Shown here: one piece after another, positions 18,848 to 35,341 of the stretch
Position numbering within the stretch: the first letter of the stretch is position 1
How the letters are laid out: each line of letters starts with the position of its first letter
Assembly (NCBI GenBank): GCA_038231275.1
Contig: JBBRLQ010000005.1
Span: 128,001 to 192,000 of the forward strand
Source: Polyangiales bacterium
GTDB taxonomy: Bacteria; Myxococcota_A; Polyangia; Polyangiales; Polyangiaceae
DNA length: 64,000 nucleotides
Direction of reading: 5' to 3'
Notes under the pieces: generated by a model
What the model saw: the letters and a program-made list of their open reading frames with translations, nothing else
Told to the model about the DNA's origin: nothing
The model's database searches: none
Program-made: the position numbers and the translations under genes

Positions 18848-19116
18848 GATCAAAGAGCCTCCACGGGGACGAGCTAGTCCAAGTTCCGTGCCTTCCGGTG
18901 CCGCTGTACAATGATGGTGGCGCGGCCCGAAATGGCGACGAACCTGGCGAAACGTGCGACCCGCGCGTCCGGGCAGGCGGATCCTTTTTGCACCGGGTGG
19001 TCACCCGCGCGCGACACGATCGGGCTCGGAGACGCGCCTCCGCGGACGATTCCAGTGGCACGCGCACGCCCGGGCCTCGCGGTTGGAAGATTCCTCAGCG
19101 CGCTCCGGTGTCGCTC

Positions 19117-19131
19117 CGGCATCGCGCTTGC
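19117..19131 (+). promoter_or_regulatory. Candidate sigma54 promoter of the EBP gene
   Basis: CGGCATCGCGCTTGC (GG-N10-GC with TTGC), 15 nt before ATG 19146. Confidence 0.6.
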
Positions 19132-19145
19132 TGAGGAGGTGGGAG

Positions 19146-20291
<1,146 letters not shown>

Positions 20292-27652: not shown

Positions 27653-29639
<1,987 letters not shown>

Positions 29640-29803
29640 CCGCGCGCCACATCTCGACCTGACTCGGGAGATCCACCCCCTGGGCCATTTGAGAGGTTGT
29701 TCGTCTGCGCCTGCACGCGAATCCGGTGGGAGGCGACCCCACCTTCGAACGCTGGGAGGCTCTCCTTTCCACTGGAGCTGCTCGTGCGCGCGCTCGCTCG
29801 ACG

Positions 29804-29818
29804 TGGCCCGCACCTTGC
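29804..29818 (+). promoter_or_regulatory. Candidate sigma54 promoter of peptide unit
   Basis: TGGCCCGCACCTTGC, close to TGGCAC-N5-TTGC consensus; GGAGG RBS at 29833. Confidence 0.65.
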
Positions 29819-29843
29819 GATGCATGGGAATCGGAGGATGCAG

Positions 29844-30182
29844 ATGAAGACCCCGAAGTTCCAGGTGATCGAGCTCGATGCGCTTGAGCGCGTCTCTGGT
29901 GGCATGAACCTGGATGGGCTCCCCTTGAGCGACAACATCGAGGACCGGCGCCCGCAATCGGACGGAGGCCCGGTCCCCGACGCCGAGTGGCAAGCCGAGC
30001 AGAACGGCTACAACAACTCGTGCTTCACCGGCGCCGACGGGCAGGAGTACTCCGGCGATCCGAGCGGCGGCCCCGCGCAACCGATGGATGTCGGTGGCGA
30101 TGGCGGCGGCGGTGACGGCGGCAGTGGCGGAGACGGCGGCGGTGGCGGAGATGGCGGCGGTGGCGACGGGGGCGGCGAATGA
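29844..30182 (+). CDS. Double-glycine-leader peptide (bacteriocin/RiPP precursor-like), Gly/Asp-rich tail
   Basis: MKTPKFQVIELDALERVSGG|MNLDGLPLSDNIEDRR...; GGAGG 6 nt upstream of ATG. Confidence 0.7.
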   Translation: MKTPKFQVIELDALERVSGGMNLDGLPLSDNIEDRRPQSDGGPVPDAEWQAEQNGYNNSCFTGADGQEYSGDPSGGPAQPMDVGGDGGGGDGGSGGDGGGGGDGGGGDGGGE

Positions 30183-30337
30183 GCACCGTGACCTTGCCCG
30201 GTCAGTTCGGCTACGTCGATCTCGACGATCTCGACTTGGTCAGCGACGACGATGCGGACGAGCTCCACTCCTTCGAGAGCGCGCTCGCCGACATGCCCCG
30301 CTCCGAGCCACCGCGCTCGTGTCCTCCGGAGGGCTAG
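30179..30337 (+). CDS. Putative 52-aa acidic peptide, translationally coupled
   Basis: ATGA overlap with upstream stop; MSTVTLPGQFGYVDLDDLDLVSDDDADELHSFESALADMPRSEPPRSCPPEG; GC3-rich codons; too short for the ORF track. Confidence 0.55.
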   Translation: MSTVTLPGQFGYVDLDDLDLVSDDDADELHSFESALADMPRSEPPRSCPPEG

Positions 30338-30389
30338 GCTCTACGAGAAGCTTCGCCGCCTCGCGGAGAAAGAAGCGCGCTCGCCGTGG

Positions 30390-32486
30390 TCAATCCCGCG
30401 CGATGAGCGTGCCGACGCCGCGGTCGGTGAAGAGCTCGGCGATGATCGAGTGCGGAGTGCGGCCGTCCAAGATGTGGACGCTGTCGACGCCGCCGTCGAG
30501 GGCAGCGAGCGCGGCGGTGGCCTTGGCGACCATGCCGCCCTTGATGGCGCCGCTCGCGATCTTCGCGCGGAGCTGGCTCGCGCGGATCTCGCTGATCAGC
30601 TCGCCGTTCTCGAGGATGCCGGCGACGTCGGTGAGGTAGATGAGCTTGCCGGCCTTGAGCGCGACGGCGATCGCAGCGGCGGCGGTGTCGGCGTTGATGT
30701 TGTAGGCCTGCCCGTCCTCGCCCATGCCGATGGGGGAGATGACCGGGACGTACGCCTTGCCGAGGAGCGTCTCGAGGAGCTCGGCGTCGACCGACTCGAC
30801 CTCGCCGACCATGCCGAGATCGCGGCCCTCGCGCGAGAGGAGCTTCTTCGCGCGGAGGAGACCGGCGTCTTTTCCGGAGAGCCCGACCGCCTTCGCGGTG
30901 CGCTGGTTCAAGAGCTGGACGAGCTCGGTGTTCACCTTGCCGGTGAGCACCATCTCGACGACCTTCACGTCTTCTGGACCGGTGATTCGCTGGCCGTCGA
31001 CGAACTCGCTGCGGCCGCTGCCGAGCTTCTCGAGCGTGTGTGTGATCTCAGGGCCGCCGCCGTGGACGACGATGGGGAGGAGGCCGGCCGAGCGGAGCAG
31101 GTTGATGTCGTTGGCGAAGGCGACCTTGAGCGAGTCCTTCACCATCGCCGCGCCGCCGTATTTGACGACCGCGCGCGTGCCTGCGAACTTCGAGATGTAG
31201 CTCAGCGCCTCGACGAGGAGCGCGCGCTTGAAGCCGGGGCTGTAGTTGGTGAGCCGGTCGTCCTTGGTGACGGTGCCGTCGGGCGCGGCGCTGGTGAGAC
31301 TCGTGTAGTCTGCATTGATCTTGACGTAGTCGTACGAGAGATCGCAGCCCCACGCGCGCGCGAGCGTCTTCGGATCCCCGGGGAACGCGACGTCGATGAG
31401 GATCGTCGGCTCGCGCATCTTCGCGCGGAGGGCCGCCGAGTCCATTCCGGTGGGCGCGCCGTTCGCGAAGACCTCGGAGCCTTGGATGGAGACGGTGGCG
31501 CGCATCGGCTCGGCGCCGAACTTCTGTGAGCCGTCCCGCGCGCCGACGGTGGCGAGGACGCGGCCCCAGTTGGGGTCGGCGCCGAACATCGCCGCCTTGA
31601 CGAGGCTCGAGCCGGCGATGGCGCGCGCAAAATCGCGGCCGATCTCCTCGCTCGTCGCGCCGCGTACGGTCACCTCGAGGAGCTTCGTCGCGCCTTCGCC
31701 GTCCTCGGCGATCGCACGCGCGAGATCGGTGCAAACGTCATGGATCGCGGCTTCGAAGAGCGCGAAGTCGGGGGTGCCTTCGAGGAGCTCGGGGTTCTGC
31801 GCGAGGCCGTTGGCGAGGGCGAAGACCGCGTCGTTGGTGCTCATGTCGTTGTCGACGGTGAGCATGTTGAACGAGCCGCCCATCGCGCGCACGAGCGCGG
31901 CCTGCAGCGCCGCGGGGCCGATGGCGGCGTCGGTCGTGATGAAACCGAGCATCGTCGCGAGCTCGGGGGCGATCATGCCGGAGCCCTTCGCGAACGCGGC
32001 GATGGTCACGTCCTTGCCGCCGAGGCGGAGCGAGCGACCCGAGAGCTTCACGCGGGTGTCGGTCGTGAGGATCGCCTCGGCGGCGAGCTCGATCGCCGCG
32101 CCGCGCGCCGAGACGAGCAGGGCAGCGCCATCCTCGAGCTTCTTGGTGGGCAGCCGCACGCCGATGACGCCCGTGGACGCGCACAAGACGCTGTCGCCGG
32201 GGACGCCGAGCGCTTTGCCCGCGGCGTCGGCCACCGCGCGCACGTCGCGCTCGCCCTCCGGTCCGACGAGCGCGTTCGCGTTGCCGCTGTTCACGACGAT
32301 GGCGCGGATGGTGGTGCTCGGCACGCGCGCGCGCGCGTCGACGATGGGGGCGGCGCACGCGGTGTTGACGGTGAAGCAGCCAGCGGTGGTGCACGGCGCC
32401 TCGCTGAACACGAGCGCCATGTCCTTGCGCGCCGCCTTGATGCCGCAGTTGATGCCGGCGTACGCGAAACCGAGGGGCGTCTTCAT
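30390..32486 (-). CDS. argJ-argB: Fused ornithine acetyltransferase ArgJ - acetylglutamate kinase ArgB
   Basis: ArgJ: NSGNANA, STGVIG, TTDT, KGSGMIAPELATML, STND, DGEGATK, WGCDLSYDYVKINADY. Then in frame ArgB: EALSYI, VVKYGG, VHGGGP, NINAD, TDVAG, GGMVAK, ELFTDRGVGT. Confidence 0.93.
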   Translation of the reverse strand: MKTPLGFAYAGINCGIKAARKDMALVFSEAPCTTAGCFTVNTACAAPIVDARARVPSTTIRAIVVNSGNANALVGPEGERDVRAVADAAGKALGVPGDSVLCASTGVIGVRLPTKKLEDGAALLVSARGAAIELAAEAILTTDTRVKLSGRSLRLGGKDVTIAAFAKGSGMIAPELATMLGFITTDAAIGPAALQAALVRAMGGSFNMLTVDNDMSTNDAVFALANGLAQNPELLEGTPDFALFEAAIHDVCTDLARAIAEDGEGATKLLEVTVRGATSEEIGRDFARAIAGSSLVKAAMFGADPNWGRVLATVGARDGSQKFGAEPMRATVSIQGSEVFANGAPTGMDSAALRAKMREPTILIDVAFPGDPKTLARAWGCDLSYDYVKINADYTSLTSAAPDGTVTKDDRLTNYSPGFKRALLVEALSYISKFAGTRAVVKYGGAAMVKDSLKVAFANDINLLRSAGLLPIVVHGGGPEITHTLEKLGSGRSEFVDGQRITGPEDVKVVEMVLTGKVNTELVQLLNQRTAKAVGLSGKDAGLLRAKKLLSREGRDLGMVGEVESVDAELLETLLGKAYVPVISPIGMGEDGQAYNINADTAAAAIAVALKAGKLIYLTDVAGILENGELISEIRASQLRAKIASGAIKGGMVAKATAALAALDGGVDSVHILDGRTPHSIIAELFTDRGVGTLIARD

Positions 32487-33508
32487 GGCATGATCCGCAT
32501 CAGGTGATCGAGGCCGAGGGTCTCGGGGAGATCGAAGAGGAGGTTCAGGTTCTGCACCGCCTGACCGGCGGCTCCCTTGAGCAGGTTGTCGATCGCCGCG
32601 ACGCTGACGACGACGTCGGCGTTGGCGGTCGCGCCGACGCGCGCGTGGTTGGTGCCGGTGACGCTCTTCAGCGTGGCCTCGGCTGGCGCGCACGCGTGGA
32701 CGAACGGCGTCTTCGCGTACGCGTCGGCCAGGCATTCGGCGACGCGCGCGGCCGTGGTGCCCGGCCGCGGGCGCGCGTAGCACGTCGTAAGGAGGCCGCG
32801 CTTCAACGGAAGAAGGTGCGCCGTGAACGTCACCGCGTTCGGCCGCGCGCCGACGCGCCCGAGCGCGCGCGCGATCTCCGGCGTGTGCTGGTGCGTGAGG
32901 ATCTTGTAAGCGCGCGCGTCCTCGTCGACCTCCGAGAACGAGTACTCCTCTTTTGCCTGCCGCCCAGCGCCGGTGACGCCGGACTTGCCGTCGACGACCA
33001 GCCCCGCCGGCTCCACGAGGCCCGCCTTCACGAGCGGCGCGAGCGCGAGGATCGCCGCCGTCGCGAAGCACCCGGGGTTGGCGACGAGCGCGCCCTTCGG
33101 CGGCGCACCGAAGATCTCCGGCAACCCGTAGTGCGCTTTCGCCAGCCATCCCGGCGCAGGGTGCTCGAGGCCGTACCAATGGGTGTAGTCTGCACCCGTC
33201 TCCAAGCGGAACGCGCCAGAGAGATCGACCACCGCGGTCCCTCGCTCGCCGAACGCCGGTCCGAGCACGGCGCTCACCTCGGCGCTCGTCGCCAGGAGCA
33301 CCGCGTCGCACGATTCACGCAGCTCGAGGGCCGCGCCGTTCGACGCGAACGCTCCGGCCACCGGGAGGAGCAGGTGATCGGCGATTGGCTTGCCGGCGAG
33401 CTTGTCGCTCGTCACCCACGCGAGCGAGAGCCCCGGGTGCGCAGCGACGAGGCGCGCCGCGACGCCCCCCGTGTACCCGGTCCCTCCGACGACTCCGACC
33501 CGCACCAT
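32483..33508 (-). CDS. argC: N-acetyl-gamma-glutamyl-phosphate reductase
   Basis: GGTGYTG, DLSGAFRL, ANPGCF, SGVTGAGR, HQHTPEI, DNLLKGAAGQAVQNLN. Confidence 0.96.
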   Translation of the reverse strand: MVRVGVVGGTGYTGGVAARLVAAHPGLSLAWVTSDKLAGKPIADHLLLPVAGAFASNGAALELRESCDAVLLATSAEVSAVLGPAFGERGTAVVDLSGAFRLETGADYTHWYGLEHPAPGWLAKAHYGLPEIFGAPPKGALVANPGCFATAAILALAPLVKAGLVEPAGLVVDGKSGVTGAGRQAKEEYSFSEVDEDARAYKILTHQHTPEIARALGRVGARPNAVTFTAHLLPLKRGLLTTCYARPRPGTTAARVAECLADAYAKTPFVHACAPAEATLKSVTGTNHARVGATANADVVVSVAAIDNLLKGAAGQAVQNLNLLFDLPETLGLDHLMRIMP

Positions 33509-34075: not shown

Positions 34076-34258
34076 CGCGCCCACGCTGGCGCGAACAATG
34101 GTCGCTGTAAAGACCTCGGCCCCTCTCCGCTGGGTCATGCGATCCCGGGACGTGCTTTGCGTAGCGGGCGAAGTGCCGCGGCCATGGCCAAATTCGGCCG
34201 AAAACGCGCGATGTAAGGTCACGTCGCACGCTGGCCCGTCGGTTGCTCTACGGCGATC

Positions 34259-35341
34259 ATGCTCGAACGCATCTCTCTCGCCGTCGCCGCCGCGCTGGTG
34301 CTCTCTCCCATTCTCGCCTGCGGAGGCCGCGAGGTCACCGACGGGCCTCCGAGCCCGGGCGCGCCCGAGATCGCGCTCGTTCCCGCGGCGTGCGAAGGAG
34401 CGCTGGAGACCATCGCCGAGCTCGATGGCATGGCCCTCGGCGGGCTCGCCGCGGCGCCGGATGGAACCTTGTTCTACTCCATCGCCAAGCCGACGGATGC
34501 CGCCGGCATCTACACCGTCCGCGCCGGCGGCGCCCCTTCGCGGATCTCGACCGAGATAGCGATCCTCCAGATTTTCGTCGATGGGCCGAGCCTCTTTCTC
34601 GTTGGCCCTCACGGGATCCGGAAGCTTCCGATCTCCGGCGGCGAGTCGACTCCCATCGCTACCCCCGCGCCGTCGACGTTCGTCAGGGCGGCTCGACTCG
34701 ACGCGACCTCCGCGTTCTACGTCACTCAACCCCTCATCACCGGACCGAGCCTGGGAGTGCCGTTTACCGTGAACCGGGTCTTGCTTCAGGGAGGCGAGCC
34801 CTCTGTGGTCTTCGCCTCCGACGAAGGGAAGCTCCGACCCGGCTCGCTCGTCTTGAACGGCGATGAGATCTTGATCGGCGGCAACGACTCGGGGATCTAC
34901 CACGCGCCAAAATCCGGTGGCTCGCCGGTGCTCCTCCACGAGAACGCGACGATGTCGTTGCTCGTCGCGTCGGGCGGAACCATCTTCTCGGATCGGTGGG
35001 AATCCGGGCTCCTCATCAGCACGAGCGACCCAAGCGCTCCGCCGACGTCCATCGGTTGGCCGCTCGGCAGCGCGCTCTCGTCCGGAGGGCCAGCGCTGAA
35101 CGTGGTCGCCGACGACGCATGGGCGTACATCGGATTCCAAATTTTCCAAAACGGTACGGCGCGCACGGCGATCGCACGCCTTCCCCGTGGCCACGAGTCG
35201 GTGAACGTCGGCGGATGCACGGTGCCGGGCACACAGGACCTCGAGCTCGATGAAGGAATGGCGCTCGACGCGTCCTACGTCAACATCATGCTGACCGATC
35301 CCATTCGGCCGCACTCGCGCATCGTGCGGATGGTGCGCTGA
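34259..35341 (+). CDS. Hypothetical lipoprotein, probable beta-propeller
   Basis: Lipobox ILAC; repeated I...P.SGG and LDA..(Y/F) blade-like units. Confidence 0.7.
   Translation: MLERISLAVAAALVLSPILACGGREVTDGPPSPGAPEIALVPAACEGALETIAELDGMALGGLAAAPDGTLFYSIAKPTDAAGIYTVRAGGAPSRISTEIAILQIFVDGPSLFLVGPHGIRKLPISGGESTPIATPAPSTFVRAARLDATSAFYVTQPLITGPSLGVPFTVNRVLLQGGEPSVVFASDEGKLRPGSLVLNGDEILIGGNDSGIYHAPKSGGSPVLLHENATMSLLVASGGTIFSDRWESGLLISTSDPSAPPTSIGWPLGSALSSGGPALNVVADDAWAYIGFQIFQNGTARTAIARLPRGHESVNVGGCTVPGTQDLELDEGMALDASYVNIMLTDPIRPHSRIVRMVR

Follow-up and report, generated by a model that had tools for sequence, protein, structure and literature searches.

Class II microcins are produced as small precursors with a double-glycine signal and are secreted by a PCAT together with an MFP and TolC; in the main text of the same source their immunity proteins are described as adjacent, small and membrane-spanning, and the string 'Myxococc' has 0 occurrences there (PMC12219008). 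The peptide studied here is the product of ORF1, a gene in a 64,000-nucleotide stretch of DNA that was analysed as a whole (the window). It resembles the double-glycine/PCAT peptides, including class II microcins, in its leader of about 20 residues with a GG end, in its small precursor (112 aa) and in a three-part exporter of a C39 ABC protein, HlyD and a TolC-type protein, which is present in trans (OEP, HlyD and PCAT on contig C28). An adjacent membrane-spanning immunity protein was not found, as ORF2, the next gene, has no hydrophobic stretch. The family of ORF1 differs from the double-glycine/PCAT peptides in having sigma-54 promoters as a hallmark and a protease-derived mature N-terminus, in that most of its genes are encoded away from the exporter, and in a core that is not named by Pfam or NCBIfam. 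Also unlike these peptides, ORF1 has a highly acidic and hydrophilic core and is not accompanied by a membrane immunity gene. Export by means of a double-glycine leader is well known; the sigma-54 promoters, the YpfJ motif and the large, unmodelled family are what set the ORF1 family apart.

The second system with which the locus has to be compared is YpfJ, a widespread zinc protease that is present in E. coli. KPN_02809, a YpfJ / PF04228 putative neutral zinc metallopeptidase, is described as an active Zn protease (PMC3269727), and a physiological role for YpfJ did not turn up in a literature search. The first 21 mature residues of ORF1 are homologous to YpfJ 1-21. In contrast to YpfJ, ORF1 lacks a hydrophobic segment and the HExxH domain, and a double-glycine leader precedes the motif. 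An earlier note on this DNA missed this copy of the YpfJ N-terminal motif, with which the mature peptide starts and which is the most distinctive feature of the locus.

Organization of the locus and the putative sigma-54 promoter

All sequence features that had been listed in the earlier note were found at the locus (Table 1), i.e. a sigma-54-like box (TGGCCCGCACCTTGC, 29804-29818) with a ribosome-binding site, the 112-aa ORF1 with its 20-aa GG leader and an acidic core ending in a Gly/Asp repeat tail, and the 52-aa ORF2 that overlaps it by ATGA. Position 29804 is the start of the promoter and not of ORF1 itself, which begins at 29844. Of the conditions under which the earlier note would have dropped its model, none was observed: ORF2 is conserved, the genome does encode a C39 transporter, and the GG motif is retained in the homologues of ORF1.

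Table 1. Positions of the features of the locus in the window
Feature	Position	Strand	Basis or remark
Palindrome GTGGG-N7-CCCAC	29726..29742	+	possible activator site (putative role); 61 nt upstream of the sigma-54 box
Predicted sigma-54-type promoter (-24 GG / -12 GC), TGGCCCGCACCTTGCG	29804..29819	+	9/11 consensus positions
Ribosome-binding site GGAGG of ORF1	29833..29837	+	sequence reading; 6 nt before the ATG at 29844
ORF1, 112 aa	29844..30182	+	
ORF1 double-glycine leader, residues 1-20	29844..29903	+	predicted cut after G20
YpfJ-like N-terminal module, mature peptide, residues 21-41 (MNLDGLPLSDNIEDRR...)	29904..29966	+	hhalign
Rest of ORF1 core: conserved PQSDGGPVPDAEWQ stretch, acidic region, Gly/Asp-rich repeat tail, stop codon	29967..30182	+	
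ORF2, 52-aa acidic protein, ATGA overlap with ORF1	30179..30337	+	homologues, codon pattern, dN/dS

The box has the -24 GG and the -12 GC at canonical spacing. The window contains 3 occurrences of the loose pattern TGGC-N7-TTGC where 1.29 are expected; since 16 of 100 shuffles gave 3 or more, the box taken alone is not significant. It was found at the same place in the two sister genomes of the genus (G001 and G002), with unchanged GG and GC and a variable spacer. The upstream palindrome is kept in 3/3 genomes of the genus. Since the composite of palindrome and box has a single occurrence in the 9.3-Mb genome, namely the present locus, this pattern defines no regulon. The sigma-54 activator domain PF00158 gave 89 matches in the genome, one of them at 18954-20288 of the window. 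For the FHA-type activator that adjoins the peptide gene in G076 a unique orthologue could not be singled out, as 8 paralogues are 43-50% identical to it.

The GC content at codon positions 1/2/3 was 0.67/0.45/0.87 in ORF1 without its tail and 0.68/0.43/0.87 in ORF2, compared with 0.67/0.44/0.94 in the neighbouring argG and 0.68/0.63/0.68 in intergenic DNA; both ORFs carry the coding pattern. An Rfam search of 29500-30500 detected no RNA family. As had been stated before, a modifying enzyme is not encoded nearby (Pfam search of 19 ORFs in the window, from 14.5 to 47.2 kb), and among 140 neighbour ORFs at other family loci no enzyme was recurrent. Contigs from four DNA runs were compared with the region. 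One run, from a second study, gave short contigs that match 29786-30079 at about 94% identity and 30203-30331 at about 88%; none of them spans both ORFs, and joints with short sides or low likeness were left unused.

ORF1 as a precursor with a double-glycine leader

Double-glycine leaders follow a rule of hydrophobic residues at -4, -7, -12 and -15. The leader of ORF1 (MKTPKFQVIELDALERVSGG) has V17, L14, I9 and F6 at these positions, and its homologues show the same pattern with the exception of that in G026, which has a T at -4. L14, G19 and G20 are invariant in 8/8 aligned sequences of the family, and the GG is kept in 7/7 genome homologues. ORF1 did not match any of the leader and bacteriocin models at E<=10. 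With TIGR01847 (bacteriocin_sig) the family member P0025 reached 17.1 bits, which is over the cut-off of 15.7, and P0028 13.2 bits, which is under it; P0011 showed weak ComC and Bacteriocin_IIc matches (E about 0.1). The reading of ORF1 as a double-glycine-leader precursor behind a sigma-54-type promoter is supported, and its product is probably secreted.

By our own count the mature part contains 18 acidic versus 2 basic residues. The Gly/Asp tail is encoded by an 18-nt tandem repeat in 3.6 copies, and the core was predicted by AlphaFold to be disordered (mean pLDDT 54.6). ORF1 has neither a Pfam match nor an HExxH or a hydrophobic segment, and a search of PHROGs yielded nothing for ORF1, ORF2 or P0035.

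A putative exporter in trans

The earlier note had pointed out that the window is without a transporter and had proposed that an exported peptide is processed in trans. The first statement holds for C39 transporters, and the second is supported. The whole genome has one C39 match (118 bits), which is on contig C28, and the window has none. The C28 protein is a PCAT with C39, ABC_membrane and ABC_tran domains, in which the Cys and His motifs are readable, and its operon consists of OEP (TolC-type), HlyD and PCAT. Two other genera are represented by G076 and G314, in which a PCAT adjoins the ORF1 orthologue; identity of the C28 protein to these PCATs is 65% and 59%, respectively. In one sample of 101 genomes of the taxonomic family, a PCAT orthologue with >=59% identity was found in 6 genomes, and these include 5/5 peptide holders. 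The co-occurrence comes from 4 related genera and thus lacks phylogenetic independence; because the PCAT search was done in a stricter mode, the PCAT tallies are a floor. The linkage in two genera and the 5/5 co-occurrence thus support export in trans, with a putative ORF1 exporter encoded elsewhere in the genome. Of the 7 genomes that were first examined, only 2 have the peptide gene beside the exporter, and at 0/19 other assembly loci was C39, HlyD or OEP found within 6 kb.

A YpfJ-like module at the mature N-terminus

Comparison with 24 YpfJ N-termini by hhalign (probability 97.6%, E 4.2e-12) aligned residues 21-41 of ORF1 with YpfJ 1-21, the first Met included, and the motif M-R-W-x5-6-S-x-N-V-E-D-R-R of YpfJ / PF04228 is present in ORF1. 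The genome's own YpfJ starts MRWNEDGQVSADIEDRRG. A scan of 301 genomes of the order gave about 35 matches that are confined to profile positions 21 to about 40 and lie at the beginning of frames of about 290-350 aa; the frames that were inspected among them are YpfJ genes. Positions 1-22 of the PF04228 profile align with residues 21-42 of P0006. Judged from its sequence, ORF1 is not a member of YpfJ / PF04228 because the HExxH peptidase domain is missing; it shares one module with that family.

Across 43 YpfJ sequences the invariance of the motif is close to that of the HExxH site. The predicted secreted peptide would have as its business end a copy of the most conserved non-catalytic part of YpfJ. 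When the genome's own YpfJ was modelled with AlphaFold, residues 1-20 had a pLDDT of 86-88 with a short strand at 13-15, and the linker that follows (24-62) fell below 50; in a model of ORF1 alone the motif had 56-57. A sequence search for a solved YpfJ structure returned 0, and the best Foldseek E-value was 0.038. The confident placement of the copied motif in the YpfJ model is a hint of docking on the protease domain. A further step, which is speculative and for which the odds are poor, is that in YpfJ the N-terminal motif would bind the protease domain of its own molecule (e.g. as an autoinhibitory pro-segment), and that Myxococcota would secrete the motif in free form, controlled by sigma-54, to act in trans on YpfJ-type proteases. 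The targets may then be proteases of neighbours or of the producer, and the peptides may inhibit them, activate them by displacement or serve as their substrates. Should the motif bind to the protease domain, the family would offer a direct handle on the role and control of YpfJ.

Size, range and promoters of the peptide family

With residues 1-60 of ORF1 as query 5 metagenome homologues were found (65-95% identity). A leader-plus-motif profile matched 121 clusters (50% identity) at E<=1e-3 among 1.84 billion representatives, and leader-type peptides accounted for 43 of the 53 clusters that were inspected out of these 121. In the copies of Pfam and NCBIfam that were searched no model matches or names the family core, and the literature search gave no relevant paper with the family's signature motif. 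An Atlas search with residues 1-75 of ORF1 gave as nearest clusters (0.79-0.82) double-glycine bacteriocin-like peptides of Bacillota, which serve as leads only. Metagenome contigs searched with ORF1 yielded no relative; searched with alignment A2 they gave one short contig, L095, which entered only the ORF2-profile scan of family loci. A tblastn search of member P0035 against plasmids was without a match. Further family loci in genome contigs were gathered by a DNA pattern scan.

A sigma-54-like box (>=8/11, within 120 nt upstream) precedes 11 genes in a set of 15 from the family and 13 in a set of 18 taken from other Myxococcota assemblies. This amounts to 24/33 family genes versus 3.8% of random windows, and the same score was reached in 2 of 27 YpfJ genes of the same scan. 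The ORF1 family is an unannotated, sigma-54-linked family, found here in Myxococcota. As its promoters are almost uniformly sigma-54-type, secretion would be tied to activator-gated signalling, about 80 such activators being carried. In the G082/G339 pair dN/dS was 0.14 over the whole ORF. Ser/Thr kinase genes recur near family genes; no conclusion was drawn from this, because the genomes are kinase-rich and several loci are orthologous.

ORF2 and its occurrence without ORF1

ORF2 has matches in both sister genomes (E 4.6e-15 in G002 and 1.4e-11 in G001) and in metagenomes (P0008, 84%; P0009, 73%). The alignment contains 22 invariant columns, GC3 is 0.87, dN/dS is 0.36-0.42 and indels are in frame. 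On the basis of this codon pattern, a dN/dS of about 0.4 and in-frame indels, ORF2 is considered a real gene. Apart from near-identical metagenome sequences it was found solely in the source genus. In G001 and G002 the sigma-54 box is followed directly by ORF2, without ORF1, at 15-16 nt from the ORF2 ATG. A profile scan of the 38 other loci holding ORF1-family genes detected no ORF2-like gene. An Atlas search for ORF2 gave no usable match.

The conservation of ORF2 expected by the earlier note is thus seen in the sister genomes, and that of the pair is not, as the ORF1-ORF2 pairing is absent from the sisters and from the 38 other family loci.

Proposed course of events and alternative explanations

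The following explanation is probably correct. An enhancer-binding activator would fire the sigma-54 promoter, from which ORF1 and the ATGA-coupled ORF2 would be transcribed. The 20-residue leader of ORF1 would be recognised by the genome's single PCAT, which belongs to the TolC-HlyD-PCAT operon on C28, and this PCAT would cut after G20 and export a strongly acidic peptide of 92 residues. With this cut the exported peptide would begin with the motif copied from the conserved N-terminus of YpfJ/PF04228. ORF2 would be a separate, genus-restricted, small acidic protein that the sisters would express alone from the same promoter. The pairing would be lineage-specific and not a conserved two-peptide system, ORF1 having been inserted, or lost in the sisters, a comparison that spans three genomes. 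For the locus, the model of two peptides with a decoy is replaced by a simpler one, in which promoter and downstream gene were already there and a single gene was placed between them or lost from there.

The likeness between ORF2 and the leader, on which the earlier note had relied, was recovered in its register but is weak: hhalign picks the same alignment of QFGYVDLDDLDLVSDD with KFQVIELDALERVSGG (16 columns, P 0.0068), with a homology probability of 5.6%. Because of this weak in-register likeness and the shared sigma-54 hallmark, ORF2 could be a decayed relative and not an unrelated gene. It would then be a decayed tandem paralogue, likewise small, with a relic leader that lost its GG and a core that was replaced; the promoter would originally be the family's own, as a sigma-54 box near the start codon marks the family and precedes ORF2 in G001 and G002, and ORF1 would have been lost in these two genomes, not inserted in the present one. 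This is unlikely, since ORF2 is without a trace of the NVEDRR motif or of GG, the hhalign probability is low, and ORF1 orthologues of other genera are found at other loci, two of them beside the exporter. The latter implies that the position at the arg locus is derived in any case.

It is improbable that ORF1 is a class II microcin, i.e. a secreted antibacterial toxin, with ORF2 as its immunity protein. The double-glycine signal, the precursor of 112 aa and the exporter of PCAT, membrane-fusion protein and TolC-type protein fit the definition in the main text of PMC12219008, and some G026 paralogues are near ADP-ribosyltransferase-like and Imm33 genes. However, ORF2 has no hydrophobic segment and occurs without ORF1, whereas the immunity proteins described there are adjacent, small and membrane-spanning, and the core of ORF1 is extremely acidic and predicted to be disordered.

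The proposal of the earlier note, in which ORF2 is an uncleavable leader mimic that binds to the exporter's C39 domain, or to some other protein that recognises leaders, and acts as decoy, inhibitor or ORF1 partner, is slightly more improbable still. The register of the alignment agrees with it, as do F10, V13 and L18 of ORF2 (-15, -12 and -7), which are invariant in 5/5 homologues, the putative translational coupling to ORF1 at this locus, and the PCAT orthologue in both sister genomes that carry ORF2 (87% and 80% identity). On the other hand, position -4 varies (V, S, G, A), the GG of G001 is shifted by two residues from the register, and in both sisters the promoter is followed by ORF2 without ORF1. 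ORF2 was found in one genus only, but the sample of the taxonomic family has the peptides and their exporter in at least 4 genera; together with the low homology probability and the 0/38 family loci with an ORF2-like gene, this leaves the coupled two-peptide unit unsupported. A complex prediction of ORF2 with the C39 domain of the PCAT, run without controls, scored 0.02 and 0.01, the mark being 0.32, and was counted for neither side.

Least probable of all is that ORF1 is not exported and that, with a start at Met21 or an uncut leader, its product is an intracellular free copy of the YpfJ N-terminus, for although Met21 aligns with the initiator Met of YpfJ and an exporter is missing from the surroundings of most family loci, the leader shows conservation at the protein level with its three invariant residues, GGAGG precedes Met1, the low dN/dS of the G082/G339 pair extends across the whole ORF, and the family co-occurs with the PCAT orthologue.

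Two minor observations concern the sequences that were collected. A weak ORF2 match in G089 (E 0.0067) is located inside a 304-aa open frame. P0003 and P0008 are from the same source, with a longest contig of 1399 for both.

The ORF1/ORF2 locus

The two reading frames lie in a 750-nt gap separating two convergent arginine genes, in high-GC DNA belonging to contig C5 of a 9.28-Mb, 164-contig assembly (G000). The sigma-54-like box, the GGAGG sequence, ORF1 and the overlapping ORF2 that an earlier note had described were all found at the positions listed in the table, and the observation as a whole was confirmed from the sequence. The interpretation put on it, a GG-leader precursor coupled to an uncleavable leader mimic, was supported in part: ORF1 is a double-glycine-type peptide, whereas the small protein encoded by ORF2 is real but stands apart from it. 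Both frames showed the codon-position GC pattern of real G000 genes, which was absent from the flanking intergenic DNA. No RNA family was recognized by Rfam at the locus. The ArgJ-acetylglutamate kinase frame is uninterrupted in the window, and a fusion of the same kind can be read in the sister genome, G001.

Features of the locus and of related sites in the window
Feature	Position	Strand	Remark
Sigma-54 enhancer-binding protein	18954-20288	+	~10 kb upstream of ORF1
Argininosuccinate synthase	end at 29639	+	upstream arginine gene
Sigma-54-like box TGGCCCGCACCTTGC	29804-29818	+	read in sequence
GGAGG	29833-29837	+	read in sequence
ORF1	29844-30182	+	112 aa
ORF2	30179-30337	+	52 aa; ATGA overlap with ORF1
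Fused ArgJ-ArgB reading frame	30393-33311 (end at 30390)	-	ArgJ, Pfam residues 285-671; acetylglutamate kinase, residues 713-949
Second box TGGCCCGTCGGTTGC	34232-34246	+	
Lipoprotein-like ORF	34259-35341	+	360 aa; 12 nt after second box

ORF1 belongs to a family with an invariant double glycine

A genome search revealed no paralogue of ORF1 in G000. With ORF1 residues 1-60 as query, five metagenome homologues of 65-95% identity were obtained, and weak matches in relatives were traced to a peptide of 53 aa in the sister genome G001 and, in another genome of the family (G026), to a protein of 194 aa. The homologues have in common a GG-terminated leader, after which the core starts M/L-x-W/L-x4-5-S-x-N-[IV]-E-D-R-R. 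In eight aligned sequences L14, G19, G20, S29, N31, E33, D34, R35 and R36 are invariant, and the GG noted in ORF1 is thus conserved among its homologues. Neither ORF1 nor ORF2 was named by Pfam or NCBIfam at E≤10. The family member P0025 exceeds the curated cut-off of the TIGR01847 double-glycine leader model. Across the entire ORF, dN/dS was 0.14 (G082/G339 pair).

A 45-column profile of leader and motif, searched against 1.84 billion proteins, matched 121 representative clusters at E≤1e-3, nine of them at E≤1e-10. The 53 that were read comprised 43 short leader-type peptides, five long repeat proteins taken to be false hits, three leaderless YpfJ-like fragments and two larger proteins, each with the motif twice, internally. 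A pattern scan with one genome per species gave 46 loci. Nineteen hold 20 leader-type peptide genes in all, and every one of these loci carries an assembly title of Myxococcota type (Kofleriaceae, Haliangiales, Polyangiaceae/Polyangiales, Myxococcales or 'Deltaproteobacteria'); the remaining 27 are ordinary YpfJ genes of many phyla, with GG codons before the ATG by chance. Among 401 sampled genomes of the phylum, leader-plus-core matches (A2 profile) came from the window's own family only, to be read as 'found in' and not as 'restricted to'.

The predicted mature peptide starts like YpfJ

The N-terminus of enterobacterial YpfJ, a zinc metallopeptidase (PF04228), carries a motif similar to the start of the ORF1 core. 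Profile-profile comparison of the ORF1 family with 24 YpfJ N-termini gave a probability of 97.6% (E 4.2e-12). ORF1 residues 21-41 align with YpfJ residues 1-21, and therefore the residue after GG pairs with the YpfJ initiator methionine. PF04228 profile positions 1-22 correspond to residues 21-42 of the protein P0006, a match that stays below threshold (E 0.029); in P0007, residues 21-41 correspond to profile positions 1-21. About 35 family-profile matches in the 301 genomes searched from the order were limited to positions 21 to ~40 and fell at the starts of frames of ~290-350 aa; those that were read are YpfJ genes starting MRWQ..S.NVEDRRG. One of the two PF04228 genes of G000 starts MRWNEDGQVSADIEDRRG. 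The forward cloning primer given in PMC3269727 encodes M-R-W-Q-G-R-R. No peptidase domain was found in ORF1, which differs in this from YpfJ: it has one module in common with PF04228 but falls outside that family.

Predicted sigma-54 promoters

Boxes of the form GG-N10-GC, up to 120 nt upstream of a gene, were scored against TGGCAC-N5-TTGCA over 11 positions. Of 15 peptide-family genes in the taxonomic family of the window, 11 scored at least 8 and eight at least 9, compared with 3.8% and 0.6% of random windows drawn from these loci. The independent pattern-scan set, from which two further peptide genes too close to a contig end were left out, gave at least 8 in 13, at least 9 in nine and at least 10 in four of 18 peptide genes. 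All these counts overstate independence because several loci are mutual orthologues or paralogues. YpfJ genes of the same scan scored at least 8 in 2/27 and at least 9 in 0/27. Predicted sigma-54-type promoters are thus a hallmark of the ORF1 peptide family, and the locus itself would be transcribed with sigma-54.

For many genes of the family, just 12-14 nt separate the end of the box from the assigned start codon, and near-leaderless transcripts would be expected. The second box in the window has the same unusual TGGCCCG -24 half, and the lipoprotein-like ORF behind it belongs to no Pfam family. The upstream enhancer-binding protein is without a recognized N-terminal sensor domain and is one among 89 PF00158 matches in G000. 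Ser/Thr protein kinase genes adjoin or lie near several family genes and also adjoin the G000 exporter operon (loci L118, L121, L124, L141, L151, L088, L085 and L090); in G076 and G026 the peptide has FHA-type sigma-54 activators in its neighbourhood. This could reflect a kinase-FHA-activator route, or chance in kinase-rich genomes.

ORF2 is a separate small protein

ORF2, which the earlier note had pointed out as an ORF, has homologues in the sister genomes G002 (E 4.6e-15) and G001 (E 1.4e-11) and in two metagenome proteins (84% and 73%); the other 98 family genomes searched gave no convincing match. Five aligned sequences have 22 invariant columns and indels that are all in frame, and dN/dS was 0.36-0.42. 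Together, these features indicate that ORF2 is a real gene.

In a three-locus alignment of G000, G001 and G002, the sigma-54 box downstream of argG, a palindrome GTGGG-N7-CCCAC upstream of it and other short blocks are conserved. In G001 and G002, ORF2 directly follows the box at a spacing of 15-16 nt. The ~340 nt of ORF1 are present in G000 only, among these syntenic loci, and the conserved flanks are 184 nt apart in G001 and 561 nt apart in G000. An ORF2 profile matched no loci other than these three, and 38 loci of the ORF1 family gave no match to it at E≤1. ORF1 and ORF2 are thus paired in a lineage-specific way and do not make up a conserved two-peptide unit. One close relative from metagenomes probably has the pairing too, because P0003 (95% to ORF1) and P0008 (84% to ORF2) come from one source and have the same longest-contig figure, 1399.

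ORF1 may have been inserted behind the promoter of ORF2. Rather unlikely is the alternative, in which ORF2 descends from a tandem member of the ORF1 family and has decayed, and ORF1 was lost from the sister genomes: the family promoter hallmark in front of ORF2 speaks for it, but the similarity is weak and the motif is absent. Under insertion or loss alike, the position of ORF1 in the arg locus is derived, since its orthologues in other genera are at other loci. The in-register leader likeness claimed for ORF2 was recovered by hhalign in the same register (16 columns, P 0.0068), but with a probability of 5.6%; F10, V13 and L18 (positions -15, -12 and -7) are invariant, but position -4 varies (V, V, S, G or A), and in G001 a GG is present but two residues out of register. 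That ORF2 is a functional leader decoy is very improbable, this weak likeness and its coupling to ORF1 being all that speaks for it.

A candidate exporter

The single C39 match in G000 is an ABC transporter on contig C28, in an operon with a TolC-type protein and an HlyD-type adaptor; no peptide gene was found beside this operon. In G076 the ORF1 orthologue divergently adjoins a TolC-HlyD-PCAT-type operon (PCAT, C39-peptidase ABC transporter), and in G314 TolC-type and PCAT genes adjoin it. The G000 PCAT is 65% identical over 752 aa to that of G076 and 59% over 815 aa to that of G314. Its orthologues in G001 (87%), G002 (80%), G082 (65%), G339 (64%) and G026 (59%) do not adjoin a peptide gene. 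Within a single sample of 101 family genomes, G000, G001, G026, G076 and G082 had the peptide (E≤1e-6), and PCAT orthologues of at least 59% identity were found in all five and in G002, with homologues at 47-49% in four further genomes; the PCAT tallies are lower bounds because that search used a stricter mode, and the co-occurrence represents only four related genera. The earlier proposal of an orphan peptide exported in trans gains from the C28 exporter and from its orthologues beside the peptide in G076 and G314, but C39, HlyD or OEP genes were found within 6 kb at 0/19 other assembly loci. In the best reading, the ORF1 peptide would be exported in trans by the C28 TolC-HlyD-PCAT system.

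Possible role of the mature peptide

Beyond the predicted cut site, the peptide contains 18 acidic but only two basic residues. A model of it in isolation points to disorder (mean pLDDT 54.6; 56-57 at residues 21-40; alignment of eight sequences). The AlphaFold model of G000 YpfJ (43 sequences) has a mean pLDDT of 85.7, with 86-88 at residues 1-20, a short strand at residues 13-15 and values below 50 in a Gly-rich, hydrophobic linker (residues 24-62). In the 43 sequences M1, S10, D15, R16, R17 and the HExxH site are invariant, and W3, N12 and E14 nearly so. The YpfJ N-terminal motif would thus pack on the protease domain, although the ORF1 and YpfJ models come from alignments of unequal depth and a membrane-spanning linker would count against packing. 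Because of this presumed packing, the mature peptides could be secreted copies of the protease's own ligand segment, which we consider unlikely. The conventional alternative is a microcin-like antibacterial role. ORF2 is unlike an immunity protein as described in PMC12219008.

Relation to known systems

Among the literature matches listed for NVEDRR/NIEDRR there were only food or signalling peptides, and on YpfJ the KPN_02809 enzyme paper alone was relevant. No published description of the ORF1 family was found in the literature searched. ORF1 represents an undescribed variant of the known double-glycine exported peptide class, from which the family is set apart by its sigma-54 link and its YpfJ motif.

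Variation among family members

P0095 (293 aa) and P0115 (383 aa) each contain two internal copies of W-x3-R-x-S-x-N-V-E-D-R-R, which may be a mobile short module; P0095 also weakly matches a phage tape-measure family (E 0.0027). The C-terminal tail of the family member P0007 (147 aa) is Cys-rich, hydrophobic and Arg-rich, and weakly resembles the MYXO-CTERM sorting domain (13.9 bits versus a cut-off of 20). A subfamily in Kofleriaceae-titled loci (L118, L119, L128, L141 and L160) has mature peptides of ~49 residues with two conserved Cys, and L128 holds a tandem pair. G026 has nine profile matches (L082-L085, L091-L094) with very different tails. Some have ADP-ribosyltransferase-like, Scabin-like and Imm33 genes as neighbours, one adjoins an FHA-type sigma-54 activator and a secretin, and one lies just downstream of FtsH.
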